DNA from: a virus
Lineage: Duplodnaviria; Caudoviricetes
IMG/VR virus record: IMGVR_UViG_3300011008_000027
Coordinates: 35,757-99,756 of that record
DNA: 64,000 nt
Direction: 5' to 3' (one strand)
Shown: positions 7,893 through 64,000 of the stretch, in pieces
Layout of the letters: each line of letters begins with the position of its first letter
Numbering within the stretch: position 1 is the stretch's first letter
Program-made: the position numbers and the translations under genes
The notes under the pieces: model-generated
Database searches by the model: none
What the model was told of the DNA's origin: nothing
Seen by the model: only the letters and a program-made list of their open reading frames with translations

Positions 7893-8096
7893 TTAAAATA
7901 ATCTTGGATATTTTCCATTAGGATATTTTCTCTTCTTAAGCTCTATATAAGACTCTTGAAGATATGATAACTCTTTATAAGTATGAGTATAGATATCTTC
8001 AAGAGTTATTAAACCATCCAAACTATCCAAAAGTTCAACCACATAGTCGTAGTATTCTTTTACTGTTCGATCTGATATGTTGAACCCGGAAGTGTT
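7893..8096 (-). CDS. -1 frameshift extension (67 aa) of the 8060..9664 gene; resembles tail-chaperone 'GT' C-termini
   Basis: Slippery T TTT TTA at 8102-8096; -1 frame open NTSGFNISDRTVKEYYDYVVELLDSLDGLITLEDIYTHTYKELSYLQESY... to TAA 7895-7893; fills an otherwise empty gap with no clear RBS. Confidence 0.72.
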   Translation of the reverse strand, partial: NTSGFNISDRTVKEYYDYVVELLDSLDGLITLEDIYTHTYKELSYLQESYIELKKRKYPNGKYPRLF

Positions 8097-9664
8097 AAAA
8101 AAAGCATATCGTTGGTACCAAGAGGAATAGTTCTTTCATAACCACATGCACTACATCTTGTAGTAATTCTAAATCTAGCTCTAAAACTATAATCTCTTAC
8201 TTGCTGAGTAATAAGATCAATTTCATACTGAGGCAACCTCTGGAATATATCAAAAAGTTCACTTATAGGCTTATAATCTGCATATTTTGTTAGTGCAAGA
8301 TCTGGATTCGCCTCAAGTTCCTTCTCTATTTCTTCATCATAACCAAATGCAATATATTCATCACCATTCTTTATACCTATACAGCTAATGAAGAGAAGGT
8401 ATGATGCTACATCATTCATTACATTATCAGTTTCATCAATCTGACTATAAATTGTAAGTGCTTTTCCAAGACTCGGTGTTTCGATATCATATATATTACC
8501 GGTTTCATTACTCATAAAACGAGTAATCTTACATGAGTCTTCTGCAAGATTAGTCAGATACGATACATTATTCCTATTAGTAAGGATATCATCTATTCTC
8601 TTTTTATACTTATCATCAAATGAATTAGGATCAAGAAGAGCTTTTATATTATAATGATCCTTATAAGTCGTTTGACACTGAGTTCTTACACAAGTAAATT
8701 CAGATGTGATATCTTCTCTTGAAGATGCTACAAATATACCATAGAGTCCCATGTCAATATCAAGGAATCTATACTTATTTACAAATTCTGCATATGATAA
8801 TGATGCATTACCTCTATCATCAAATTTAGAAATAGAAGCAGAACCCATAAAACATCCATAAAGTATAGAAGCTTGCTTTCTAATTATATTATAGAAAGAA
8901 TCTGTTATTTTACCATTTTCATCTCTTTCGAGAGCAAGACCCCTAAGAACTGATGTCTGAGCACCTTTGAATTCTGCAAAATCACCAAGTGCAGGAAGAG
9001 GAACTGAATATCTTGCGATTGACTTTTCAACTCTTCTAAGTATATTAACTTTATCAAGTCTTTTATATTTAGAGAACTTAATTGTTTTAAGAGAATCATC
9101 TTTAACAGCTACAAGTTTAACTGCATCCGCTTTTACAAGTTTCTCTTTAACTGCATCAGTAAATTCAATCTTTTCAACATCTTTATCTTGTGCCTTAATA
9201 GTAACTATGTATGGCTCTTCCGATTTAGGTTCAGAAGCAGGTTGTGTATCAGGTTCTTTATTGGCAGCTTGATTCTCTGGTGAAAATCTTTTATTAGCAG
9301 CTTCTTCAGCTTCTGCAACAGTCATTCCATACTCCCTCAAAAGAGTTCTTACATATTCCTTTCTCTCTTCGATTTTACTATCAGCTGCTACAGAAGTAGA
9401 TGAATTATTATTGTTAATAACAAACTTTGGTCCTCCGGATTTTGTATTTCTTACATTAGTACTTTCTTGTATAGGACTTACATCATCACTCATAACAAAA
9501 ACTTCTTCTTCATCATCATCTTCAGTAATAACTGTCATTGAATTCATTTCAGGAGTTACAGCATTTTCAATATCGTGTTTTACTGTTTGCTCAAGAAGAT
9601 CATTACCGGATTTATCGAACTCAGCTTTTGTATTTTTAGCTAATTCCATTAACTTATCATCCAT
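8060..9664 (-). CDS. baseplate-hub/tail assembly chaperone-like protein (T4 gp26/gp51-like, two Cys pairs)
   Basis: FTCVRTQC and RCSACG motifs; next to a gp25-like gene; ends with a slippery site. Confidence 0.6.
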   Translation of the reverse strand: MDDKLMELAKNTKAEFDKSGNDLLEQTVKHDIENAVTPEMNSMTVITEDDDEEEVFVMSDDVSPIQESTNVRNTKSGGPKFVINNNNSSTSVAADSKIEERKEYVRTLLREYGMTVAEAEEAANKRFSPENQAANKEPDTQPASEPKSEEPYIVTIKAQDKDVEKIEFTDAVKEKLVKADAVKLVAVKDDSLKTIKFSKYKRLDKVNILRRVEKSIARYSVPLPALGDFAEFKGAQTSVLRGLALERDENGKITDSFYNIIRKQASILYGCFMGSASISKFDDRGNASLSYAEFVNKYRFLDIDMGLYGIFVASSREDITSEFTCVRTQCQTTYKDHYNIKALLDPNSFDDKYKKRIDDILTNRNNVSYLTNLAEDSCKITRFMSNETGNIYDIETPSLGKALTIYSQIDETDNVMNDVASYLLFISCIGIKNGDEYIAFGYDEEIEKELEANPDLALTKYADYKPISELFDIFQRLPQYEIDLITQQVRDYSFRARFRITTRCSACGYERTIPLGTNDMLFLTLPGSTYQIEQ

Positions 9665-10242: not shown

Positions 10243-11394
10243 TTAATCATCCAGATCTATTTTAAAGAAACTTTCAAGATCCTCTATATCATCAGAATCA
10301 TCAAGAAGACCTTCTTCAGCAAGTTCTCTATTAAATTCATTCATCTCATCTTCAAATGCTTCGAATGTACTCTGATCGGATTCATCTTCATAAATATCAT
10401 CGAGGTCTAAATCGAAATCAGATGGCTCATCAAATTGAAATGCTTCATCAATATCATTTTCAAAAGCACTCTCCATCGATGCATCTATCGCAAACTCTTC
10501 TATATTATAAAGTCCATCGATAACATCATCCGGATTATAATTGGGATCATAACTTTCGAGACCTTCAAGTGCATGTTCAAGGCTCGTCTCAGAACTTCTT
10601 TCTATAGCTCTTCTTCGAGCTGCTTCTCTATCTTCATCAGATACATCCATAAGGAACTCATATGCTTCTTTTGTAGAAGCAGGTATTCCATCAGCATCTA
10701 GTGTTCCATACAATATCGTTTCAGGATCAAGATAAGAGCTATCGAGAGTATTTGTAAGGTCATCAAGTTCTCCTACTGTCAAACCTTCAGTAACCTTTTT
10801 AGCTGCCAACTCTTTTCTAAGTCGACTAATTATATTACCTATTCCTCTATTATAATCAGCAAGGAATTTAATATCAGTATCACTTATGTTCATTTTATCC
10901 TGAACTATCTGACCAAACTGAATTATATCAGCCTGAGATTTAAGAGTCTTAACATAGGGTCCTATCTGCCTTTTCGCATCTCCTGCATCTATCTGACCTT
11001 TCTGGAGCTTTTCAGTTATCCTCTTCATGGCTTTAAGATGATTAGTAAATGTAGAAGATTCCTCTTTAAATACATCTGCAAGTGCTTCTACATCTGCAAG
11101 AGTTTTACATCTCTTTCTTATAAGTCTTTCTCTACTTGCAAGACATTTTTCAAGAGGCTGTCTTTTTCCAAACGGTCCGAAAGCTTCCTGAATTATTTGT
11201 TTTTCTTCATCATCTTCCGGAATTATAGAGAAATCGAATATAGCAGACTGCTCAAGAACTTCGATATCATTGAGACTTTCATCAAGATCTTCGTTTGTAT
11301 AATCAAGAGCTGATTCAATAGCCGTATAACTTTCATCTTCTATAGATTCGAGGAAATCGCTTATCTCGTTATCCAATTCTAACATATCATTCAT
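10243..11394 (-). CDS. putative inner-head protein: basic core flanked by acidic regions with many x-x-E|S/A/G sites
   Basis: AIES, IQEA, VTEG, ALEG, SMES motifs; charge segregation. Confidence 0.6.
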   Translation of the reverse strand: MNDMLELDNEISDFLESIEDESYTAIESALDYTNEDLDESLNDIEVLEQSAIFDFSIIPEDDEEKQIIQEAFGPFGKRQPLEKCLASRERLIRKRCKTLADVEALADVFKEESSTFTNHLKAMKRITEKLQKGQIDAGDAKRQIGPYVKTLKSQADIIQFGQIVQDKMNISDTDIKFLADYNRGIGNIISRLRKELAAKKVTEGLTVGELDDLTNTLDSSYLDPETILYGTLDADGIPASTKEAYEFLMDVSDEDREAARRRAIERSSETSLEHALEGLESYDPNYNPDDVIDGLYNIEEFAIDASMESAFENDIDEAFQFDEPSDFDLDLDDIYEDESDQSTFEAFEDEMNEFNRELAEEGLLDDSDDIEDLESFFKIDLDD

Positions 11395-11577: not shown

Positions 11578-12312
11578 ATGTATTTTAATCTCGATTCATT
11601 TATTGAGTATTGCGGAACTCCCGTTTCTGAGAGTATTAGTAAATACTCATATATAGATAGAAAATGGGTTACTGTATATGAAGCAGATGATGCTAATGCT
11701 AATGCAGGTACCAATAATAATGCTAACAATACCGACAATCTCGAAGGTGGTAATAATAACGCTAATAATAATAATGATGCATCAAATGACGATAAACAAA
11801 AAAGATGCGAAGAAAAAATAAAGAATATTGAAGAGGGTACTAAAACTTGGTGGCAAGCTATAAAAGAGTTTTTTGCCAATTTATTCAAGAGTGATGCCGA
11901 GCGTAGAAGAGATAGGCGTGTTGCCTTTGTGAATAAAGCAGTAGGTGAAGTTAAAAATGGTTTGAATGAACTGTACGAAATGGGTAAAAACGAAAATGGA
12001 GAATTTGATGAAGATGGCATTGATCGAATAGGATATAAACTAAGAAACTATTTTTGGTCTATTAGAAACGCACTTTCGGGGATGATAAACGACTGGCATC
12101 TTAACCCAGACGGAACCCCTAAAAATAAAGGCGCAAATACTAATAATAACAATAATAATACCGGCACCAATAATAATAACAACAACACGAATCAAAATAA
12201 TAATAATAATCAAAACTCTAATACCTCTAATAATCAAGAAAAGAAAGAAGGCAACAGTGGAGATATACTTAAAGATAGTAATACAGCAGTTAATGCAGTT
12301 AAAAATGCTTAA
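11578..12312 (+). CDS. Asn-rich protein, distant member of the LDSF-leader / FFxNLFK family
   Basis: MYFNLDSFIE, VYE|A, WWQAIKEFFANLFKS, poly-N tracts. Confidence 0.8.
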   Translation: MYFNLDSFIEYCGTPVSESISKYSYIDRKWVTVYEADDANANAGTNNNANNTDNLEGGNNNANNNNDASNDDKQKRCEEKIKNIEEGTKTWWQAIKEFFANLFKSDAERRRDRRVAFVNKAVGEVKNGLNELYEMGKNENGEFDEDGIDRIGYKLRNYFWSIRNALSGMINDWHLNPDGTPKNKGANTNNNNNNTGTNNNNNNTNQNNNNNQNSNTSNNQEKKEGNSGDILKDSNTAVNAVKNA

Positions 12313-12387
12313 AAATAATCCTATATATCCGCATCGAAAACAAATTAGTTAATGCCTATATCGGATTTAGCGGAGGTGAAATATACT

Positions 12388-13173
12388 ATGGAAGAAAAAA
12401 TAGTTAAAAGAGCAACGGGTTGTTTTAAAGATGGCTTTGATGAAAGAGATTACATATACATGCCTGTTTGTGCTTCTCATTCTAATCTTCCTGATTCTTT
12501 TATCTTAGAGAGATTTCCAGTTAAAGACCAAGGGGATATAAATTCTTGTGTTGCACATTCATGTGCTCTTATAAAAGAGATACAAGAGTTTTATGACACT
12601 GGTAAGAAATTAGAATTTTCTGTAGGATGGATTTATGGATATAGAACTAGTGGGCAATACATGGGTGAAGGTATGTACCCTAAAGATGCTTTAAAAACTT
12701 TAATCGACTATGGAGATGTAGTTAAATCTGTATTTCCGGAAAACTTAGAATATGATGATATTCAGGGGTTAATCGATAAAAGAAAAGCGACATGCATTCA
12801 GAAAGCAAAGCCATTTGTAATTAAAGCCTATGCTCGAGTTACATCAGCAATGAATGTTAAAACAGCTATATACAATAATCATTCACCAGTAATGATTGTA
12901 GTTGATATATATGAAAATTTTTATAATATCCCTAAAACCGGTATCGTTCCTAATAGGCAGGGTTCTTGTGATGGCGGTCATGCCATGGTCATCATTGGAT
13001 GGACAAAGATAAATAATCAAGAGTACTATGTGGTACAAAACTCTTGGGGAACGAATTGGGGTGATAAAGGTTTATGTTATATTAAACCGGGAAACTCTAT
13101 TATTTCTGATCTTTTCACTTCGGTGGATAAAACAAATACTATTCAAGATATGAAGAGAATAAATTATAAGTAA
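12388..13173 (+). CDS. papain-like cysteine peptidase (family C1)
   Basis: DQGDINSCVAH (Q/C), GGHAM (H), QNSWG (N); start at ATG 12388 behind GGAGGTG. Confidence 0.92.
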   Translation: MEEKIVKRATGCFKDGFDERDYIYMPVCASHSNLPDSFILERFPVKDQGDINSCVAHSCALIKEIQEFYDTGKKLEFSVGWIYGYRTSGQYMGEGMYPKDALKTLIDYGDVVKSVFPENLEYDDIQGLIDKRKATCIQKAKPFVIKAYARVTSAMNVKTAIYNNHSPVMIVVDIYENFYNIPKTGIVPNRQGSCDGGHAMVIIGWTKINNQEYYVVQNSWGTNWGDKGLCYIKPGNSIISDLFTSVDKTNTIQDMKRINYK

Positions 13174-17770: not shown

Positions 17771-17838
17771 AACCCATTCCACCTCCTTTCATCCATATAA
17801 ATAATATATTTTTTAAATGGATGAAAGTAAAGTCAAAA

Positions 17839-22790: not shown

Positions 22791-23564
22791 ATGGAAGAAT
22801 TTTATTTAGAAATATCCGATATATTGGATAATTTCAATCTTAATCAAATAAGCGATATATTAACTAATAATATATTAAGTCCAGAAGCTGAATTTGATAA
22901 TGATATTCCTATAAATTATTTTTCCATATTATATGCTAAATATAAAAATATGCTTGAAGAATATGACGATCCAGATATAAAAAGAGCTATAGAAGATAGA
23001 TTTTCTGAGATATGCTTGATGTTTATTGATATAATGAAAACTAAATTCGAATTTGAATTAAGTGAAGATTACATGTCAACTAATTCAAATAATTTAGTAC
23101 CAATAACAGTCGCACTATATTCGTTCTTTGTTATAGACTATAAAGCAATAGTTACTAAGATTCTTATTAACTATATCAAGAAATATTACAATGATATCTA
23201 TAAAATCTTCGGCGCTCTTAAAAATAGAAAAGATGTAAGTACTTCGGCTAATAAAAACACGGAAACAAAATCGGATCTTTCTATTATAATGGCTAATATT
23301 CATATGATAGCCGAATGGGTAATGGATAATCTCGAATCTCTCGATGATATTCTCGAGTATATGGATCATGACTATATATATTATTCTTTCATTAAAAAAC
23401 TTAATGATGAAAATCATATTACCGGACGAATTGCATATAATTATAATCGGATATTTAAGAAGAGCATTACTCTTAAAGCAGAAATTGCATTTGATGTATT
23501 ATCTGCTTTAGGTATAAATATTTCTAAAGTAGTAAATTTAAGCAAACCAAATGAGGAGGAATAA
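22791..23564 (+). CDS. hypothetical protein
   Basis: 257 aa ORF; AACA-N6-TA at 22732-22743. Confidence 0.8.
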   Translation: MEEFYLEISDILDNFNLNQISDILTNNILSPEAEFDNDIPINYFSILYAKYKNMLEEYDDPDIKRAIEDRFSEICLMFIDIMKTKFEFELSEDYMSTNSNNLVPITVALYSFFVIDYKAIVTKILINYIKKYYNDIYKIFGALKNRKDVSTSANKNTETKSDLSIIMANIHMIAEWVMDNLESLDDILEYMDHDYIYYSFIKKLNDENHITGRIAYNYNRIFKKSITLKAEIAFDVLSALGINISKVVNLSKPNEEE

Positions 23565-42216: not shown

Positions 42217-42477
42217 TTATCGTGGACCAATATTACCTCTTCTGCCTCTTACAGATTTCTCATTAGCGACCATAAGGCTAGGATTATATTTTTTATCTAT
42301 TTTATCAGATACCCCTTTAAATATATCTGTAAGGGCATCATCATAACCCTGTTCAAGTGCAAGTTCATATTCCTCATCCGGAATACTTTCTGCAAGAGAT
42401 TCATAAGCCATATCATCATGCATATCGAGGTTTCTTAAGCAAGCATCAAATCCGTCCAAAAATGCATTTCTACTCAT
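42217..42477 (-). CDS. small acidic-leader family protein
   Basis: NAFLDGF, AYES, ALEQGYDDAL; late promoter 42514-42525. Confidence 0.75.
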   Translation of the reverse strand: MSRNAFLDGFDACLRNLDMHDDMAYESLAESIPDEEYELALEQGYDDALTDIFKGVSDKIDKKYNPSLMVANEKSVRGRRGNIGPR

Positions 42478-42586: not shown

Positions 42587-42871
42587 ATGTACAGCTACTA
42601 CAAAACTCTTGAATCGGAAATGGCTGATAGGCAACATCATGATGAACGAATTAAATCATTAAATGATAAAGCAGAAGAAATCCGAAATAAATCGAAAGAA
42701 TTAGTTAATTCGTCTAAATCTATGAATGGTAAAAATATCCATGCTAATGCAGCTAATAGTGCAATACAAGATATAAATAGATCTAAAAATGTTGCATACA
42801 AAAGATTAGAGAATAGAGGTAATCGCGCAACTGATAGTTATATAATCACATACGAGAAGGTATATATTTAA
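42587..42871 (+). CDS. small protein with MYSYYxTLE leader
   Basis: GAGGAGGT RBS; leader shared with the next gene. Confidence 0.75.
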   Translation: MYSYYKTLESEMADRQHHDERIKSLNDKAEEIRNKSKELVNSSKSMNGKNIHANAANSAIQDINRSKNVAYKRLENRGNRATDSYIITYEKVYI

Positions 42872-42889: not shown

Positions 42890-43297
42890 ATGTATAGTTA
42901 TTACAATACTTTAGAAGCTGCAATGGAAGGATGGGATGGTGCTCTTAAAGGTGCTGCGGTAGGAGCACTTGCCGGTCCTGTTGGAATGGTAGCTGGTGGA
43001 TTAATTGGTAATAAAATCCAAGATGATAAATACGGACCAAAAACTACTAAAGAACATGATGAGATAATACAAGAATGTAGAAAATATGATATTATTAAAC
43101 CTTTAGCAATGGAGCATTATGCTAAACTTAGAAAACAACTTCAAACTTTTAATGCTTTAACTCCAGCTAAAAAAATAATAGTTGCTAGAAGGATTAAAAA
43201 GCAATTACAGAGGTTTGGTAATCCCCAGCTCATTAGGGATGCTGTTAAAATAGCAGGAGAATCCGGAAGTTCATTTAAAGATTATATGAATGCTTAA
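42890..43297 (+). CDS. glycine-zipper protein with MYSYYxTLE leader
   Basis: GALKGAAVGALAGPVGMVAGGLIG after AME|G. Confidence 0.8.
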   Translation: MYSYYNTLEAAMEGWDGALKGAAVGALAGPVGMVAGGLIGNKIQDDKYGPKTTKEHDEIIQECRKYDIIKPLAMEHYAKLRKQLQTFNALTPAKKIIVARRIKKQLQRFGNPQLIRDAVKIAGESGSSFKDYMNA

Positions 43298-43389: not shown

Positions 43390-43926
43390 TTAATATTTTG
43401 TTTTCTTAATTGCAGAATCATGCTCTTTAATTTTATTTGGGATATTTGCTTTAAGAGCTTCACATTTCTCCCAAACTCGAGCTATCTTGTTATCGAATTT
43501 TCTCTTTATCGCAATCTTTTCTGCTTTAGTCTGAGCTTCCTGCAATGCTTCCTTACATTTAGCTTTAAGCTCCTTTGTAAGAGATCTGGCTATTGAAGTA
43601 TATTTATTGAGATAATACTTTGTATTCTTTTTATCGATCTTTCTTTCTTTTCTCCAGTTGAAATAATCCTTCAAACTCTCTTCAGCATAGTCATCGAGTT
43701 CATAGTCATAATCATCATCAACGTTATCATAATCATAATAACCCTCACCTGCATACTGATTACTATAAGGATCAAATGAATCAAGATCATACAAACCATC
43801 ATCATATCCTTCATATACATCGTCGACATCATCATAGAGATCGAGATCAGATGAATCTAATCCAAGGTCTTCATAAGCTGCCATCATACCATCATTGAAG
43901 GCATCTTCGTATCCATATATATTCAT
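43390..43926 (-). CDS. acidic-leader family protein with basic C-terminal domain
   Basis: YEDAFNDG, GLYDLDSF, YAEE|S, then a Lys/Arg-rich domain. Confidence 0.82.
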   Translation of the reverse strand: MNIYGYEDAFNDGMMAAYEDLGLDSSDLDLYDDVDDVYEGYDDGLYDLDSFDPYSNQYAGEGYYDYDNVDDDYDYELDDYAEESLKDYFNWRKERKIDKKNTKYYLNKYTSIARSLTKELKAKCKEALQEAQTKAEKIAIKRKFDNKIARVWEKCEALKANIPNKIKEHDSAIKKTKY

Positions 43927-43975: not shown

Positions 43976-44692
43976 CTAAAAACGCATTATAGCGTCAACA
44001 TCAAGATTGGCATCCTCATCCCACTGTTTAAGTAAATCTCTCTTTTCTTGTCCTGCATTAGACCATTGATCTACTTTAAGACTGATTTGACCTACACCTG
44101 TATTTATATCTTCAATTCTCTTTAATGAGTTATAGAAGTATTCTTCCATATCTAATAATGCAAGTTGTCTGAAAGCCGATGATGCTCCATCAGGTATAGT
44201 TGCAAGAGAACTATCATGAATTATACTCAGTTCAACCACATAACTTCCAATCCAACCATTGTATATTTCTAATATATCAGGTTTTCTAAAATTGAAAGTT
44301 AAAGCAGGATACATTGAATTTTGTAATGTTGCATATAACTTATAATCTGCTAATGTACTAAGAAGCACATCAGGAGCCACACTAAAATCAAAAAATTCGC
44401 CATATGTATCACATCCTATAGGATCAACTCTATTAACTTGTAATATAGATGATCCCATATAAAATGTTTTAGGAATTCTATATACAGTTCTTCTATTCCA
44501 CATACCTGCATCAATTTTCTCATTAACACCTATATATGATTCTACACGATATGGGCATCTAATTGAAAATTCTTTTAGTGCAGAATTCTGGAGTCTATCT
44601 AACATATCTTGATCGGTAATAGTTCTCGGAAGGTCCCTAAGTCCCATATCTTGTTTTATAAGATTTAAAAGCTCAGAAGTTGTATAAACCAT
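43976..44692 (-). CDS. neck / head-tail adaptor protein (T4 gp13-like)
   Basis: Size and pattern (LI...G, ALKEF, LALLD..E, TGVG.I.L....AGQEK.DL). Confidence 0.55.
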   Translation of the reverse strand: MVYTTSELLNLIKQDMGLRDLPRTITDQDMLDRLQNSALKEFSIRCPYRVESYIGVNEKIDAGMWNRRTVYRIPKTFYMGSSILQVNRVDPIGCDTYGEFFDFSVAPDVLLSTLADYKLYATLQNSMYPALTFNFRKPDILEIYNGWIGSYVVELSIIHDSSLATIPDGASSAFRQLALLDMEEYFYNSLKRIEDINTGVGQISLKVDQWSNAGQEKRDLLKQWDEDANLDVDAIMRF

Positions 44693-52076: not shown

Positions 52077-52192
52077 ATTAATTCCTCCACGTAAATTATT
52101 ATATTTCATAAATAATATATTTATGAATTATTTTCAAATAAGTGATAATAGAGAAAAACCCCATATAGCATTATGCTATATGGGATATATAA

Positions 52193-57031: not shown

Positions 57032-57679
57032 TTAGAAAATGGGCTTTGGTTGTTTTTGAGGAGTTGGTTTATCCTTTCTAAATGGTCCTGTTACAACGTC
57101 TTTAAATTTTGCTCCACCTTTTTTAAATGTATCTTCAGCTTTATCAAAAACAGCATTAGCCTTTCCACCAATGTCAGTCATTTTATCGACTATTTTATGA
57201 GCTAAATTATCTATGTCATATCTCAATTTACTAGTTTCTTCAAAATCAAATTGTTCGTTACCATTTTCATCAGTTGTTACATTTCTTTTGTAATACGTTT
57301 TTTTGCCTTCACTGTCAGTCTGTGATACATACTTAATATCATTTTGATAATCATTGATTTTTTTACCTATAGATTTACCAAAATTTGTTTTGCTTATAAG
57401 TCTTCCTGCAGCAGCACCGGCAGCCGCCCCTCCTATAATTATTCCGGCAGCTTTAAGTATTTGACGTCCTCTATTAGTACATTCTTCCAAATCTTTGCAA
57501 TCACCATTAATGTCCTTAACTCGAGGATCATTCTTATATTTCGGATCTTTACCGAAGAGTTTTCTAAAGAAATTGGGCACCGTTTCTGTTATTAGTTTTA
57601 TTGCATCATTTTCGTTTTTTTTTGCAAGAGCTTCTAATGCATAGTTGTAACCGCCATTGAATGCTTCACTATATGTCAT
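57032..57679 (-). CDS. TYxEAFNDGY-leader family protein (short leader)
   Basis: MTYSEAFNGGYNYALE|A, TETVPNFFRKLFG, Gly-rich hydrophobic segment. Confidence 0.88.
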   Translation of the reverse strand: MTYSEAFNGGYNYALEALAKKNENDAIKLITETVPNFFRKLFGKDPKYKNDPRVKDINGDCKDLEECTNRGRQILKAAGIIIGGAAAGAAAGRLISKTNFGKSIGKKINDYQNDIKYVSQTDSEGKKTYYKRNVTTDENGNEQFDFEETSKLRYDIDNLAHKIVDKMTDIGGKANAVFDKAEDTFKKGGAKFKDVVTGPFRKDKPTPQKQPKPIF

Positions 57680-57930
57680 TATAATCACCTCATTTCCCTG
57701 CAAAATGTTAAATTAATGTTTTGTATCCTTATGACTTGATAGAATAAGATGTGATAGACGCGTGACATAATAATGAAGATGATATCATTAGAAAAATACG
57801 ATTTATAGAAAATCATAACAATAATCGGTTACCATGATTATGGTAACAGATTATCGTCTAACCCTATAACAAGTCTTATTTATAAGACTTGTTATAGGAC
57901 AAAACTAAATTAGTAATCGAGGTGATTATA

Positions 57931-58638
57931 ATGACATATAGTGAAGCATTCAATGATGGATATAGATATGCATATGAATCCATTGACGGGAAAAGTAAAC
58001 ATTCCAATATATTTCAGCGGGCAATTGCCATGCTAAAAAGTACACTTATGAAAGTTGCTAATTTTTTTAAAGAAAAAATGCCAAAATTCTTTAAAAAGGT
58101 AGAATCGATGGAAATAACCAGTAGTGAGGATAAACAAAAAATTGGATTATTTAAGAAGTTATGTGGGAAACTTAAGATTGAAGAAAAGACTGCAAAGAGA
58201 ATTCTTGTTAAAACTGGTGTAGTTGCGGGAACATTAGCTGCTCGAAAGTACTTTAGAAATAATGTTGTGGGCACAGTTAAAGATCCAGAAACTGGAGAAA
58301 CGAAGTATTATAAAGAGGCTTCGTTTATTGCACGTGATAATGCAAATAAATTAAATCTTGATATAATTCAAGTTAAAGAATGTAAGAAATCTACATATAC
58401 TATGTTAAATATTCTTCATAAGCTCTTTTTTATTGGTGAAATGTTCACTCCTATGGGATTAGTACCGGATTTAGGAGAAAGTCGTAGAACGTATAACATC
58501 GATGATGAGAGTGGTATGAAAAAAGCAAATACGAGACTGGCTAAATTAATAAAACGGGGTTATAGTAAAGGAATGTATAATGAAAAGGATATATATTCTG
58601 ATGATGATATGGGTGTATACAACTTATTTATGAAATAA
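57931..58638 (+). CDS. TYxEAFNDGY-leader family protein (short leader)
   Basis: MTYSEAFNDGYRYAYE|S, MPKFFKK, TGVVAGTLAA. Confidence 0.88.
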   Translation: MTYSEAFNDGYRYAYESIDGKSKHSNIFQRAIAMLKSTLMKVANFFKEKMPKFFKKVESMEITSSEDKQKIGLFKKLCGKLKIEEKTAKRILVKTGVVAGTLAARKYFRNNVVGTVKDPETGETKYYKEASFIARDNANKLNLDIIQVKECKKSTYTMLNILHKLFFIGEMFTPMGLVPDLGESRRTYNIDDESGMKKANTRLAKLIKRGYSKGMYNEKDIYSDDDMGVYNLFMK

Positions 58639-58774
58639 ATACGCTCGAGGCAAAGATAATGATTTAAATACTTGGTATATTAATTATCCATTGATATCAA
58701 AAGCACTTTCAACAGTTTAATTAAATTCATATACTTAAAATAGTATATGAATTTAATTATTTATATTATGATGA

Positions 58775-60034
58775 TCATAAAATTTTATCCATGTATTGCT
58801 GTAATTCCTTTAAAGCCTCTTGATCGTTTGATGTATTTATAATTTTTCTTATAAGAAGTTTAGTTCTTTTCTCAGACCACCCTTCTTCTTTAGCTTTAAT
58901 TCTGACTCTTCCTATAAAATCTTTTTTCATTTGTTGAGCATTTAATTCTGTTTGTCCACCTTCGTCATTTTTAGGTTTCGTCTCCGATGTTGTAGTACTA
59001 TTGTTATCTTCATTTTTTGTTTGTTGATTCGGCTCTGGATTACTATTGGTAGTATTCTGATCATCTGTATTTGATGCATCAGATGTATCCGAAGTATTTG
59101 AGTTATCTGCAGGAAGAGCAGGTTTCGATTGGTTGGATTTGTTATCATTATCGGTTTTTTTCTTACCAATATTTTTAACAGTGTCCTTTACTTTATCCTT
59201 TACTTTGCCTCCGAAACCCTTTACAGCATCTGCTGCGTTTTCTACTTTCCCAGTAACAATTTTGTCTATATCACGTATTCCCGAAAGTACTTTGTGCGTA
59301 CATTTCTTTAAATAAAATGCCGTACTACTAATTTCTGTAGTGCTTACGTTACCTTCACTATCTGTAACGTTTTTAACATATTTTGTTTTATTATCGTTGG
59401 AATTTGATCCCTCTACTTTGCTATACGAGGTGTTGTCAATGTAATTATTAGCTTTATTAGCTATATTTTTACCAGCTTTTGTCTTATTAAGAAACATTTT
59501 TGTTCCTGCATAACCACCAGCAAGTGCAGCCGCTCCTCCTAAAACTATTCCGACACCTTTAAGTATTTGACGTCCTCGATTGGTATGCTTTTCCAAATCT
59601 TTGCAATCACCATTAAGGTTTTTAACTCGAGGGTCATTCTTATATCTAGGATCTTTACCAAAAAGTCTTCTAAAGAAGTTCGGTATTGTTTCTGTGAGTA
59701 GTTTTATAGCTTTTTCTACAAGGGATTTTAATATACCCAGTAAACCGGACTTTTTAGGTTCGGGTTCTGGTTCCTTCTTCTTAAACAAATTTAATGCTTC
59801 TAATGCATCATAATACCCGTTATAATATGCTTCATCAATATCATAATTCTCATATGCAGAATCGTCATCTATGAAACTATCAAGATCATATAATCCTTCT
59901 TCTGCATAAGTATCATATTCATTTTCCCCAAATGAGTCAAGATCATACATATATTCTCTATCATCAATAACGTATCCAAGCTCTTCAAGAGCCTGTTCAT
60001 AACCATCATTGAATGCATCGTTATAAGTAATCAT
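58775..60034 (-). CDS. TYxEAFNDGY-leader family protein (long leader)
   Basis: Two YDLDSF units, DALE|A, PNFFRRLFG, GVGIVLGGAAALAGG. Confidence 0.9.
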   Translation of the reverse strand: MITYNDAFNDGYEQALEELGYVIDDREYMYDLDSFGENEYDTYAEEGLYDLDSFIDDDSAYENYDIDEAYYNGYYDALEALNLFKKKEPEPEPKKSGLLGILKSLVEKAIKLLTETIPNFFRRLFGKDPRYKNDPRVKNLNGDCKDLEKHTNRGRQILKGVGIVLGGAAALAGGYAGTKMFLNKTKAGKNIANKANNYIDNTSYSKVEGSNSNDNKTKYVKNVTDSEGNVSTTEISSTAFYLKKCTHKVLSGIRDIDKIVTGKVENAADAVKGFGGKVKDKVKDTVKNIGKKKTDNDNKSNQSKPALPADNSNTSDTSDASNTDDQNTTNSNPEPNQQTKNEDNNSTTTSETKPKNDEGGQTELNAQQMKKDFIGRVRIKAKEEGWSEKRTKLLIRKIINTSNDQEALKELQQYMDKIL

Positions 60035-60218
60035 AATATAATACCTCCTTTTATATTCAAAATATTGTGCTTTATAATAAAGTTGAAATTAATAATATAG
60101 TAAATGCCGAAAAATAATACTACAAAAAAGACTATTTAATCTTTTTTGTATCTCTACTTTTAATCAACTAACGGTTAACACTTTTTTAATACTTAATATG
60201 AAAGGAGTGCATAAAACC

Positions 60219-60941
60219 ATGGATTTATCTACCAAGCGTAAAAAAACAATGGAAATGTTATGCTCTGCATTAGATAAAATAGATCCTACGGGAGACAACT
60301 CCAAGAAATATAAAAATAAATTTAATAAGATGTCTGATAAAGAATTTGATTCATATATGAAGAAATTCTTATCAGATCCAAATAAATATTTTTATCTGGA
60401 AGTAATTGATTATGAAAGACCGTTAAAGATGGTAAATATTGAAGCATGTGCTAAACATCTTAATATCCCACTTTATGAGAAGGTATGCGTACCATATACT
60501 AATATGGATTTAGAAAATGCCGTAGTTTTACCTGAACCAGTTGCAGTTGGATATATACATCTAAAAACAATGGTTCAAATGTTGTTAAAGAAGAATTCAA
60601 CTGCGTTTGATATAAGTCAGAGAAATGCAAAAACGAATCAAGTTACAGGAGATTCAAAAACATCGAGAACTACCGATGTTGAATCATATTCCATGATCTC
60701 CATTCAGGCTAAAAATGCACTTAAAGAACTTCTTGGTGCTAGAGCTGATGATCAGAGAGCTAAGAATGAAATGTATAATGAAATAGCGAGTAATGGATAT
60801 GTATCTTTGGAAAATCTTGAAAGTCGACCTGAAGATAAAGTTGCATTATCAACTCTTGATGCTTATTTTGCATTAATGGGCTTTAAAACTAATCTTATTA
60901 CTGGATCGGATCAATTACGGAAACCAATTGAAAATACATAA
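60219..60941 (+). CDS. rpoB: RNA polymerase beta C-terminal subunit (probably virion RNAP)
   Basis: VAVGYIHLK, R...NQVTG, DVESYSM..A.NALKELLG.RADD (cf. GEMEVWAL..A..LQEMLT.KSDD); late promoter 60177-60188. Confidence 0.87.
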   Translation: MDLSTKRKKTMEMLCSALDKIDPTGDNSKKYKNKFNKMSDKEFDSYMKKFLSDPNKYFYLEVIDYERPLKMVNIEACAKHLNIPLYEKVCVPYTNMDLENAVVLPEPVAVGYIHLKTMVQMLLKKNSTAFDISQRNAKTNQVTGDSKTSRTTDVESYSMISIQAKNALKELLGARADDQRAKNEMYNEIASNGYVSLENLESRPEDKVALSTLDAYFALMGFKTNLITGSDQLRKPIENT

Positions 60942-60955
60942 AGGAGGTACCATAT

Positions 60956-61852
60956 ATGATTACTTATAATGAAGCATTCAATGATGGTTATGAACAGGCT
61001 CTTGAAGAAATGGGCTATGTTATTGATGATAGAGAATATGTTAGTGACGGTCTTTATGATCTTGATTCATTTATAGATGATGAATATGATACTTATGCTG
61101 AAGAAGGATTATATGATCTTGATAGTTTCATAGATGACGATTCTGCATATGAGAATTATGATATTGATGAAGCATATTATAACGGGTATTATGATGATTT
61201 CGTATATGAGAATTATGATCCCGATGAGGTATATTATGATGATTATGACTACGATAATGCAATGGAAGCATTAAAATTATTTAAGAAGAAAGATACGGCA
61301 GAGGTTTCCACTACTGAAAATGAGGGTATTGGAAGAAAAATATTAAATGGATTAAAGAATTTAGTCCAAAAGGTAGCAAAATTTCTTACTGAGACAATGC
61401 CAAACTTCTTCAAAAATCTATTCAAATCTAATCCAGATCTTAAAAATGATGAAAAAATTAAAGATTTGAATAACCAATGTAATGATCTTAATAAGAGAAA
61501 TATTAAGGCGACGACTATTCTTAAAGCATTTGGAGTTGCCCTTGGTGCAGTAGGAGTAGTATATGCCGGTGGACATGCTGTTAAATTTACTACGAAAAAC
61601 ATTGAAAAGCTAAAAGATACTACAAATGGATTATTAGATGCATTTGGTAGCGTTAAAGAAAATGTTGATAACGTTAAGCAAAATATTGCCGCAGCGCCGG
61701 GAAAGGCTAAAGACGCTTTTGTTAGCGGTGCAAGAAAGGTCAAAGAAGGAGTCAAGAAAAAAGGACCTGAACTTATTAATTCAACAAAATCAAAGGCATC
61801 CAGCTTTTTTAATGCTGCAAGTGATAGATTCAAGAATTTTGTAAAGAGGTGA
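60956..61852 (+). CDS. TYxEAFNDGY-leader family protein (longest leader)
   Basis: Two YDLDSF units, AME|A, PNFFKNLFK, AFGVALGAVGVVYAGG. Confidence 0.9.
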   Translation: MITYNEAFNDGYEQALEEMGYVIDDREYVSDGLYDLDSFIDDEYDTYAEEGLYDLDSFIDDDSAYENYDIDEAYYNGYYDDFVYENYDPDEVYYDDYDYDNAMEALKLFKKKDTAEVSTTENEGIGRKILNGLKNLVQKVAKFLTETMPNFFKNLFKSNPDLKNDEKIKDLNNQCNDLNKRNIKATTILKAFGVALGAVGVVYAGGHAVKFTTKNIEKLKDTTNGLLDAFGSVKENVDNVKQNIAAAPGKAKDAFVSGARKVKEGVKKKGPELINSTKSKASSFFNAASDRFKNFVKR

Positions 61853-61895
61853 AAGAGTAGATATTAACTATGATGACATTATTGATATAGATTAA

Positions 61896-62000
61896 ATGAA
61901 AAAATTTATGTTAAATCTTCTCTAGAAACTTTTTCTTATTGGTGATGCATTTACTCCTATGGGATTAGTAAAAGAATTTAAATCGTTATATGGACAATAA
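61896..62000 (+). pseudogene. decayed fragment homologous to the C-terminal part of 57931..58638
   Basis: MLNLL*KLFLIGDAFTPMGLV vs MLNILHKLFFIGEMFTPMGLV. Confidence 0.65.
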
Positions 62001-62065
62001 TCCATATAACGATTTAAACATTTAGTATGTGTGAATTAGTTTTAATATATTAAACAATGGTATCA

Positions 62066-62740
62066 TCAGTATCTACCTACTGTATCGGTATCTTCAACAC
62101 TCGCTGGTTCTACATGAACTACGAGGCTAGATTCTGGAATAATTTCTCTAGCGTTTTTCAGTGCTCGTTTCTCTTGCATTTTAGTTTTCATAGATTCCAT
62201 TTTAGCTTTTATAGCGCCTAATAGTTTACCACCTTTGGCGATTGCTGCACCACCAACATGTTTACCTACTTCTACTGTTTTAGCACCAAAATCACGAGCC
62301 TTACCTGCAGCAATTCCAAAGAATTTTGCTGCCTCTTTTGCTTCGGAATTAAGATCTGATGCTTCTTTATTAAGTTCTTTAACTGTTGAAGAATTTTTTG
62401 CTGCCGGATTCTTTTTAAATAAATTACTAAAGAAATTCGGGAGTGTAACTGTAAGAAATTTTCTAACAGCTTCAATTAATTTCGATGCTGCAGATTTCAA
62501 ACGTTTCCAAACACTCATATTTTGAGATTCGGTTGTATTTGCCGGTTCCTCGTTCTTCTTAAACAGATTTAATGCTTCTAATGCATCTACATATCCTTGT
62601 TCATATGCATCATCGTATGACTCATACGTAGGTACAAAACTATCAAGATCATAAAGACCTTCTTCAGCATAAGTATCATAACCCATCTTTTCGAGGGCTT
62701 GTTCATAACCATCATTGAATGCTTCATTGTAAGTAATCAT
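62066..62740 (-). CDS. TYxEAFNDGY-leader family protein
   Basis: MITYNEAFNDGYEQALE, GLYDLDSF, DALE|A, PNFFSNLFK. Confidence 0.9.
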   Translation of the reverse strand: MITYNEAFNDGYEQALEKMGYDTYAEEGLYDLDSFVPTYESYDDAYEQGYVDALEALNLFKKNEEPANTTESQNMSVWKRLKSAASKLIEAVRKFLTVTLPNFFSNLFKKNPAAKNSSTVKELNKEASDLNSEAKEAAKFFGIAAGKARDFGAKTVEVGKHVGGAAIAKGGKLLGAIKAKMESMKTKMQEKRALKNAREIIPESSLVVHVEPASVEDTDTVGRY

Positions 62741-62787
62741 AATGTAATACCTCCTGTCTAATAATAAATGAGTATATGCTTATCCAT

Positions 62788-63458
62788 TTATTTTGTCATT
62801 GCTTTTGCTTTTGTGATTAAATCACCTAATTTGTCATCTACATTTACTACTAACGTCATGAGTCTTTTTAATGACTTGTTTTGTGCTTCTATATATGCAT
62901 CTTTTTCTTTTATCGTTTCTTCAAATTTGTCGATTTTTTGGTTTGCTTCATTGAGTTTTTGATGTTGAGTTGCTGCTTTTTGTGTTAACTCATAGTTATG
63001 CTGAAAAACACGTTGATACTTTTTATTTTTAAGTGCGTTATTTTGTATTTCTTCATCAAGATTTTGTTTTAACGATATGTTTCCGCTTTCAAGGCAGAAT
63101 TTTGCTTTATTAAAGAATCATTAGATTTGCGTGTTTTGTGTATAGTATAAATACCATATCCTGCTGCACTAACACCTATTAATCCAGCAAGAGTTTTAGC
63201 TAATTTTGCAACTCTATTACTCTTTTTATTGATAGATTGAACTTCAGGCATATTTTTAGCTTCAGGATGTTTATTAAATAGATTCCTAAAGAAATTGGGA
63301 ATCTTAACACTAAGAAGAATTTTAACTTTATCGAGAAATCTTTTGCACATATTTTTAAATTTTGACCACAAACCTATTTTTTTAGATTCATTTTCACTTT
63401 CATTAACGGATTCTAATACGAATCTATATCCTTCATCAAATGCCTCAGTATATGTCAC
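62788..63458 (-). pseudogene. TYxEAF-leader family gene with a 1-nt frameshift at ~63080-63082 (repaired length ~223 aa, coiled-coil C-terminus)
   Basis: Adding one A to GCG GAA AC gives ...ALKAENISLKQNLDEE..., open to TAA 62790-62788. Confidence 0.75.
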
Positions 63459-63624
63459 TTATTATCACCTCAACTCATGATTACAACTGCGACAAGATAA
63501 TAAATATTATCTTGTCGCAGTCAAAATTATCATATCTATTATTTAATGATAATTTCTAATCATTACAAAAAGATAAATTATCTTCTTGTAGTGGAACTTT
63601 GCATATATAAAGGAGGTACCATAT

Positions 63625-64000
63625 ATGATTACTTACAATGAAGCATTCAATGATGGTTATGAACAAGCCCTCGAAGAGATGGGCTATGTTATTGATGATA
63701 GAGAGTATGCTGAAGAAGGTCTTTATGACCTTGATAGTTTCATAGATGATAATTCTGCATATGAGAATTATGATATTGATGAAGCATATTATAATGGATA
63801 TTATGATGCATTAGAAGCATTAAATCTGTTTAAGAAGAAGGAACCAGAACCTGAGCCGAAGAAATCTATAGGATCAAAAATACTGCAGGCACTGAAGTCA
63901 GTTGTAGAAAAAGCAATAAAACTAATAACAGAAACGGTGCCCAATTTCTTTAGAAAACTCTTCGGTAAAGATCCGAAATATAAGAATGATCCTCGAGTTA
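63625..64000 (+). CDS. TYxEAFNDGY-leader family protein, runs off the window (absent from the ORF track)
   Basis: AAGGAGGT RBS; MITYNEAFNDGYEQALEEMG...DALE|ALNLFKKKEPEPEPKKS...TETVPNFFRKLFGKDP. Confidence 0.9.
   Translation, partial: MITYNEAFNDGYEQALEEMGYVIDDREYAEEGLYDLDSFIDDNSAYENYDIDEAYYNGYYDALEALNLFKKKEPEPEPKKSIGSKILQALKSVVEKAIKLITETVPNFFRKLFGKDPKYKNDPRV

Follow-up and report, generated by a model that had tools for sequence, protein, structure and literature searches.

Near the end of a 99,756-base virus contig from IMG/VR lies a cluster of seven genes (57032-64000) whose products begin with a common acidic leader, and we describe here this cluster and its wider family, the members of which are candidate precursors of internal head proteins. 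The window, that is, the whole stretch of DNA analysed, is 64,000 nucleotides (nt) long and covers bases 35757-99756 of the contig; positions are those of the window, and the prefix G000: marks coordinates on the same contig upstream of it. The contig is about 40% complete (CheckV) and has a GC content of about 30%. PHROG and tblastn searches matched its proteins to polymerases in split form (several beta/beta' RNA polymerase subunits and a DNA polymerase), to an SbcC-like nuclease and terminase, and, on the structural side, to tail sheath, tube-like and several "virion structural" proteins. The closest matches came from Bacillus phages BpSp and AR9/PBS1/Goe21, Yersinia phage phiR1-37 and Staphylococcus jumbo phages, and remoter ones from phiKZ/SPN3US/Erwinia RAY-like phages. 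Because of this match profile, with two split multisubunit RNA polymerases and a related terminase and virion proteins, the source is, as judged from its genes, an uncultured member of the jumbo myophages that have two multisubunit RNA polymerases (phiKZ/AR9/SPN3US supergroup).

The seven-gene cluster at the contig end

The first-pass annotation had reported seven genes starting with M(I)TY[NST][ED]AF..GY, and a six-frame motif scan together with the list of open reading frames (ORFs) found exactly seven in 57032-64000. The genes alternate in direction, and all seven have strong Shine-Dalgarno sites. The leader ends as had been described, in [AV]-x-E↓[AS] (the arrow marks the leader/body border): ALE↓A in members A, C, E and G, AME↓A in D, AYE↓S in B and VLE↓S in F. 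All seven proteins are basic in the region that follows and carry [TK].[IMV]P[NK]FF..[LV] there, and the additional [G/M]LYDLDSF units were also recovered, two in C and D and one in E and G. Besides these units, the leaders of C, D, E and G contain extra inserted sequence rich in Tyr, Asp and Glu.

Member A (57032-57679, minus strand, 215 aa) has a leader of 16 residues followed by the PNFF helix, a Gly/Ala hydrophobic stretch and a basic tail, while B (57931-58638, plus strand, 235 aa) carries the variant core MPKFFKKV. The longest product is that of C (58775-60034, minus strand, 419 aa), in which an acidic leader of 79 residues with two YDLDSF units precedes the core, a Gly/Ala stretch and a long Asn/Ser/Thr-rich tail. 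The acidic leader of D (60956-61852, plus strand, 298 aa) extends over 104 residues with four A-x-E sites, and its body also contains the core and a Gly/Ala stretch. Member E (62066-62740, minus strand, 224 aa) combines a 55-residue leader with the core and lacks a clear hydrophobic stretch. The minimal form is F (63069-63458, minus strand, 129 aa, GTG start), made of leader, core and a short hydrophobic stretch. The contig end cuts off member G (63625-64000, plus strand), the final 88 nt of which (63913-64000) are the exact reverse complement of 57517-57604 in gene A, so the contig probably ends inside G because the assembler could not pass this repeat.

At the DNA level the gene copies form direct and inverted repeats of 72-92% identity, so their resemblance does not come from chance. 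In codons 1-21 of C, D, E and G we counted 29 synonymous and 9 non-synonymous differences (summed over pairs that are not independent), and because the synonymous ones are in excess, the leader peptide, not merely its DNA, appears to be conserved. Between D and E there is a non-coding remnant (61907-61970, plus strand) of 64 nt with 81% identity to the 3' part of gene B, which points to turnover of genes within the cluster. Two proteins from other metagenomes, P0008 and P0009, turned out to be strain variants of gene A: in this near-identical strain the gene is broken into two ORFs, and its core is preceded by 16 additional residues, as it is in C and G. The make-up of the cluster thus differs from strain to strain. 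Long, perfect or near-perfect AT-rich hairpins occupy intergenic positions of the cluster (57863-57898, 63477-63530, 58718-58759 and 61977-62018); two of them lie between convergent genes and resemble bidirectional terminators, and the other two lie between divergent genes.

Leader, core and the tape measure repeat

The bodies behind the leader had been taken as unrelated C-termini, forming a library of unrelated effectors. This does not hold: when ten members were aligned, the proteins proved to have in common, besides the leader, about 60 residues around P-N-F-F that form a core, and the tails differ only beyond it. Since the core is shared as well as the leader, the bodies are paralogs, and A and C, for instance, are 47% identical overall.

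The family is larger than first described, as at least a dozen genes share the leader, including genes with unrelated bodies. Three related leaders had been listed at 43390, 42217 and 11578, and each of them proved to be of a different kind. The one at 43390 is convincing (YEDAFNDGM plus GLYDLDSF), though the protein has no PNFF core: member H (43390-43926, minus strand, 178 aa) has 83 acidic residues with AFNDGM and GLYDLDSF units, ending in AEE↓S, and a basic core-less body unrelated to the family. The protein at 42217-42477 (minus strand, 86 aa) is acidic and composed solely of leader-like units (AFLDGF, AYES and ALEQGY, the last also read as ALEQGYDDAL). At 11578-12312 (plus strand) a divergent member (E=3e-6 within the contig) joins a second class of leader (M..[NT][LF][DE]SFI.[YF], here MYFNLDSFIEY) to a core-like helix, EFFANLFK.

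Upstream of the window, U1 (G000:6873-7172) has a class-I leader on a core-less body, and U2 (G000:24068-25192, N-terminus MTITEFI) and U3 (G000:25207-25797) have class-II leaders with the core. The class-II start M..[TN][FLI][ED][ST]FI.[FY] of U2, U3 and the protein at 11578 resembles the internal LYDLDSFI unit. A second leader-only protein, P0041 (G000:16824-17138, plus strand), is small, very acidic and built of three AF/SF/AY..GY..AL units (AFEGY, SFEEGYQAALE and AYNEGYQMAL). The two leader-only proteins may be docking partners or core components of the prohead. A possible outlier just upstream of the window (G000:33194-34564, minus strand, 456 aa) has an acidic Asn/Asp-rich N-terminus, an FF-rich helix (KAFFNKILSFFKKAP) similar to the family core and a C-terminal metallopeptidase-like HEVGH motif; its match to PF12699 is weak (16.4 bits with a cut-off of 27, E=1.4e-4).

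Several other genes were noted for their N-termini. The adjacent genes at 42587-42871 and 42890-43297 (both on the plus strand) have in common a short start, MYSYY[KN]TLE[SA], that is different from the family leader. In the 42890-43297 protein this start runs on through AME↓G into a glycine-zipper-like hydrophobic stretch, and the 42587-42871 protein has a weak match (E=5e-4 within the contig) to the part of the family profile that follows the core. Strongly acidic N-termini with [A/S]-x-E↓[A/S] also occur at 10243-11394 (minus strand), 22791-23564 (plus strand) and 8060-9325 (minus strand), with the motifs AIES at residues 25-28, SPEA at 30-33 and AEEA at 6-9; these three could be further propeptide-bearing virion proteins.

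To describe the leader/body border we used alignment A3, which contains 15 members, six of them metagenomic homologs of 15-27% identity. The Glu at the border is invariant (15 of 15) in the context [A/V/I/T/M/S]-x-E. At the level of sequence motif, A-E, G, H and U1 have ALE, AME, AYE or AEE at the border, and the motif of F, U2 and U3 is V/I/T-x-E. A-x-E occurs 24 times per 619 leader residues, about five times the 4.9 +/- 2.0 expected from composition-preserving shuffles (0 of 2000 reached 24), and 11 times per 2809 body residues. The two parts also differ in charge: the isoelectric point (pI) of the leaders is about 4.1-5.4, that of the bodies 8.8-11 with a charge of +2 to +22, the one exception being a distant homolog, P0023, with a body of pI 6.8. 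Leader length ranges from 16 to 104 residues across the family, and its presence on the core-less bodies of H and U1 indicates that it is modular.

The Gly/Ala-rich hydrophobic stretch, which had been called usual after the PNFF helix, is less general than that. It is clear in A, C and D (mean Kyte-Doolittle value over 19 residues 1.5-1.7), weak in F and U2, and absent from E, U3 and most of the metagenomic homologs, so that by this measure only A, C and D have a segment with the predicted strength of a membrane helix, F and U2 being borderline. The proposed membrane activity of the mature parts is thus plausible for about half of the members, and the others have no hydrophobic segment.

For relatives of the family, we searched several collections. 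A word-indexed search of 5.8 billion proteins returned only the phage's own paralogs, and a second search with alignment A3 as query returned only proteins already known. No relatives were found among 50,697 phage records (tblastn, blastn) or in scans of JGI metagenomes and GTDB genomes, and IMG/VR scans with protein, alignment and degenerate leader pattern gave no real match. A search of the ESM Atlas yielded nothing above noise. Pfam and PHROGs gave no family assignment for any member, apart from a tape measure PHROG and hints of YtxH and SseC below the threshold; the YtxH-like match (PF12732) concerns member A only and is below the cut-off (19.2 bits vs 37.5, E=0.0017).

Searched exhaustively with the profile, 1.84 billion cluster representatives gave 33 matches. 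About a dozen are small metagenomic proteins built to the same plan as the family, such as P0014, which joins a class-I leader and a single YDLDSF unit to the core, and P0010, P0020, P0025 and P0016/P0034 with class-II leaders and the core. The remaining matches, 1100-2700 residues long, carry Pfam tape measure domains (PF10145, PF20155) and are the sole non-family class matched; in these proteins FFTET[VI]P.FF..LW stands in 4-9 tandem copies with a period of about 38 residues. Member D matches the tape measure protein P0021 (BLASTP E=2e-5) and the tape measure PHROG phrog_167 (E=3.6e-7 over residues 117-297), and hhalign gave E=1e-4 with a probability of only 56%. The family core F.TET.PNFF..LF thus corresponds to one unit of the tape measure repeat, with convergence possible given the shortness of the match. 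In the family a Gly/Ala hydrophobic stretch may come after the unit, as it does in many tape measure proteins. The tape measure proteins with the repeat (P0011, P0015, P0021 and others) differ in having 4-9 copies, more than 1100 residues, an N-terminal domain of their own and no acidic leader, whereas the family proteins have one copy in 129-419 residues, and Pfam found neither PF10145 nor PF20155 in them.

Neighbouring virion genes and promoter-like motifs

Within the cluster, at 60198-60941 (plus strand), there is a homolog of the beta-C subunit of the virion RNA polymerase (phrog_3233, E=5e-43; tblastn match to SPN3US_0218, gp218), and member D begins 14 nt past its stop codon. In SPN3US, gp218 is packaged in the head and ejected (PMC5694885). 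Likewise, a gene for a virion structural protein (43976-44692, phrog_18911) is followed, 49 nt further downstream, by member H.

The phage AR9 has late promoters of the form AACA-N6-TA/G and early promoters of the form AAATATATATTAT-N6-G (PMC5312081). On the contig, AAAACA-N6-T[ATG] stands 43-62 nt upstream of three virion structural genes (phrog_20751, 3013 and 3004), and the same placement was found for member A, the genes at 11578 and 42217, and a papain-like peptidase gene. The motif agrees with the AR9 late consensus. In total, 11 of the 36 copies on the contig fall in such upstream windows, while 1.0 is expected. The motif of A (57709-57720, minus strand) is AACA-N6-TA in the extended form CAAAACA, 41 nt upstream of the gene, and AAAACA-N6-TA is 50 nt upstream of 42217-42477 and 60 nt upstream of 11578. 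For E there is CAAAACA-N6-TA at 62869-62880, a position weight matrix match 144 nt upstream with its AACA at -140, and U2 has a late-type motif with N7 spacing. The virion RNA polymerase gene is preceded by the minimal AACA-N6-TA (60177-60188), 21 nt before the first ATG and 42 nt before an alternative start.

Besides, an AT-rich early-like motif, TTTcAAAAATATATTAT, is located 39-114 nt upstream of many small and DNA-metabolism genes (for example at window positions 17809, 38659, 50825, 51443 and 52120, minus strand) and closely resembles the early promoter of AR9, which is used by the virion RNA polymerase. Its extended form has 17 copies, none of which lies past position 52122, and therefore none is in the cluster. 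The promoter motifs thus favour late expression for some members and are silent for others.

The papain-like (C1) cysteine peptidase gene mentioned above (12352-13173, plus strand; phrog_16701, E=5e-22) is directly downstream of the gene at 11578 and is unusual for a jumbo phage; its late-like motif is AAAACA-N6-TT, 51 nt upstream of an alternative start at 12388.

Proposed head loading and alternative explanations

SPN3US belongs to the same supergroup. Its prohead protease gp245 has A-x-E as its only cutting motif and trims ejection proteins of their N-terminal propeptides, which are 20-127 residues long and often cut at several sites (PMC10052503, PMC5694885). For example, gp47 is cut at AVE-79/ALE-111, its mature part opens with a transmembrane helix, and its ejection was inferred; the paralogs gp53 and gp54 have identical first 15 residues (PMC5694885). 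The authors proposed that such propeptides act like the capsid targeting sequence (CTS) of T4 (PMC5694885). The family is like gp47 and gp53/gp54 in having N-terminal extensions, putative propeptides in its case, with several A-x-E sites, and like gp53/gp54 in consisting of paralogs that keep the N-terminus while the remainder diverges (PMC5694885; PMC10052503); the number of paralogs of SPN3US ejection proteins varies strongly between phages. However, no sequence similarity to these proteins was detected, the leader of the family is built of short repeated units and also stands on unrelated bodies, and its core resembles the tape measure repeat.

As the first-pass annotation had stated, T4 internal proteins have the leader MKTYQEFIAE↓A, and we read this start in IPII and IPIII of NC_000866. 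Residues 4 and 7 of the T4 leader matter for targeting and 8 and 10 for processing, and the internal proteins are basic behind the cleaved leader (PMC9026906). In the family, too, basic proteins that otherwise diverge have a common leader with x-E at its end, as in the CTS-bearing T4 proteins (IPI/IPII/IPIII and Alt; Mullaney and Black 1996; PMC9026906), where the leader is short, its terminal Glu is the cut site of the head protease and the internal-protein loci are hypervariable among relatives. The T4 leader resembles M(I)TY.EAF....ALE↓A of the family and MTITEFI of U2, a likeness too short for a test of homology. It differs in being only 10 residues long and cut by gp21 at L/I-x-E, while the family leaders are longer, modular and strongly acidic.

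We therefore propose, with about an even chance of being right, that the family are late-made precursors of internal head ("ejection") proteins, whose modular acidic leader would dock in the prohead and be removed by a head protease specific for A-x-E. The N-terminal leader would consist of one to several units (AF..GY..ALE, LYDLDSF, or the class-II start M..TFESFI.F) that dock the precursor into the assembling prohead core, like the T4 CTS and the propeptides of SPN3US gp47/gp53/gp54, and it would probably also neutralise the very basic body within the producing cell. A prohead protease of the gp175/gp245 type would then cut after A/V/I-x-E, multiple times in long leaders, and free the mature basic protein in the capsid. 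This mature part would begin with the amphipathic aromatic helix F.TET.PNFF..LF, followed in about half of the members by the Gly/Ala hydrophobic segment. The mature proteins would exit together with the DNA, and their site of action would be at or in the host membrane, the variable C-terminal tails providing different activities. We infer packaging, cleavage, ejection and membrane action from sequence features, and roles in anti-defence or in a compartment are speculation. The idea of the first-pass annotation that the leader is a head-loading zip code for ejected cargo is thus plausible and partly supported. Indirect support comes from the clade, all four of the nearest complete relatives having the gp175/gp245-type head maturation protease phrog_3014, and from the cutting motif of that protease in SPN3US, the A-x-E sites, the border Glu, the virion RNA polymerase neighbour, some late motifs and the start of T4 IPII and IPIII. 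The charge split between leader and body, the leader's occurrence on core-less bodies, the excess of synonymous codon differences, the position of H behind a virion structural gene and the precedent of gp47, gp53 and gp54 also speak for it.

Several points weigh against this proposal. No match to SPN3US gp245 or phrog_3014 was found on the contig, about 40% of the genome; a T4 gp21-type protease (Peptidase_S77, PF03420) was not found on the partial contig either, as a spurious match of 11.6 bits was a small membrane protein. Some of the A-x-E excess simply reflects the recurrence of ALE in the leader unit, and the paralogs do not count as independent samples. The residue before x-E at the border may be A, V, I, T or M, broader than the published A-x-E or S/A/G-x-E. 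As to timing, the minimal AACA-N6-TA is a weak motif in a genome of 30% GC, and no late motif could be recognised for B, C, F and G, C having a partial early-like core. The only outside relatives of the core are tail, not head, proteins, and no family member matches PF12699 (phiKZ_IP, inner-body proteins). Recognisable family homologs were not found in BpSp, Goe21, AH12 and phiR1-37, where profile matches were weak (E 0.008-0.05) and those inspected in BpSp and Goe21 were unrelated proteins, and therefore no experimental virion proteome is transferable. Finally, AlphaFold2 models of A (16-row alignment) and E (single sequence) are mostly helices, with low confidence (mean predicted local distance difference test score 53 and 62).

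Some of these points would suit proteins that are neither packaged nor cleaved, whose acidic domain is permanent (a DNA mimic, an interaction domain or the cytoplasmic domain of a membrane protein) and which act in the infected cell in superinfection exclusion, lysis timing, membrane remodelling or anti-defence. The family's absence from characterised relatives and the members without a late motif fit such a role, and the sub-cut-off YtxH-like hint points to general membrane-anchored helical proteins. We nevertheless consider it unlikely, as it gives no reason for the conserved Glu border, the A-x-E enrichment and the same leader on unrelated bodies, and leaves the link to virion genes and late-type promoters unaccounted for.

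A different role inside the head is that of prohead core or scaffold: the leader units would self-associate as an internal core (cf. T4 gp22, gp67 and gp68), most of the protein would be degraded at maturation, and nothing functional would be injected. Leader-only proteins exist, one of them with three units, the long leaders offer many potential cut sites, and in giant phages the scaffold protein has not been identified, propeptides having been suggested for that role (PMC5694885). However, A-x-E clusters in the leaders and is very sparse in the bodies, which predicts stable mature bodies, and these are diverse, basic and partly hydrophobic, unlike scaffolds. We regard this explanation as improbable.

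At least equally doubtful is the idea that the proteins are cargo of the tail lumen, in which the tape-measure-like core would load small proteins into the tail tube beside the tape measure protein, to be expelled before the DNA, and the leader would be a loading or chaperone signal unconnected to the head protease. It draws on the tape measure proteins being the only non-family matches of the profile and on the matches of D to P0021 and phrog_167, and it has a precedent in the modular effectors derived from tape measure proteins that are described in contractile injection systems (PMC13277306). The Sle1-type effectors of actinobacteria are comparable, as they combine a tape-measure-derived module with exchangeable C-terminal parts and are delivered by a contractile device (PMC13277306); taxon and machine differ from the phage family, and the link is conceptual only. 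Against the idea, the similarity is confined to a short aromatic motif, about 30-58 residues, and may have arisen by convergence, the conserved x-E border and the A-x-E enrichment of the leader are left unexplained, and the family has no tape measure domains themselves. Other known signals and functions were rejected. Double-glycine bacteriocin leaders do not fit, as there is neither a GG site nor a transporter and the proteins are too long; the acidity of the leader speaks against Sec/Tat signals, and its place at the wrong end of the protein against type VII secretion signals. For holins there are too many paralogs, many without a transmembrane segment.

Head loading by a cleaved leader is thus already described for T4 and proposed for SPN3US. 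What is new here is a leader that is built of repeats, strongly conserved and found on at least a dozen genes, some with unrelated bodies, together with the proteins made of leader units only and the occurrence of a tape measure repeat in the core. A more specific form of the head-loading proposal, which is tentative and on balance unlikely, combines these features: the leader would be a repeat-built docking code, tunable by copy number, whose units bind similar units in the leader-only proteins making up the prohead core, and it would be joined to a tape-measure module, the products being head-packaged, protease-activated proteins that enter the host membrane.

Giant phages inject tens of megadaltons of protein along with their DNA, and how proteins are chosen for packaging is poorly understood; to our knowledge, no common targeting sequence is known for phiKZ-like phages, unlike for T4. 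If the family is not packaged, it is still a rare, fast-evolving set of paralogs in an uncultured phage, of modest interest. If head loading is true, a leader found on a dozen genes, unrelated bodies included, would be the clearest candidate so far for a packaging code in this group, and a testable tag for loading cargo into jumbo-phage heads. In addition, the link between the core and the tape measure repeat suggests that one membrane-entry module may serve both tail-delivered and head-delivered proteins, and if the docking code joined to a tape-measure module is real, the leader would be a natural portable tag for bringing foreign proteins into jumbo-phage capsids, and the family an evolutionary bridge between these two kinds of phage proteins.

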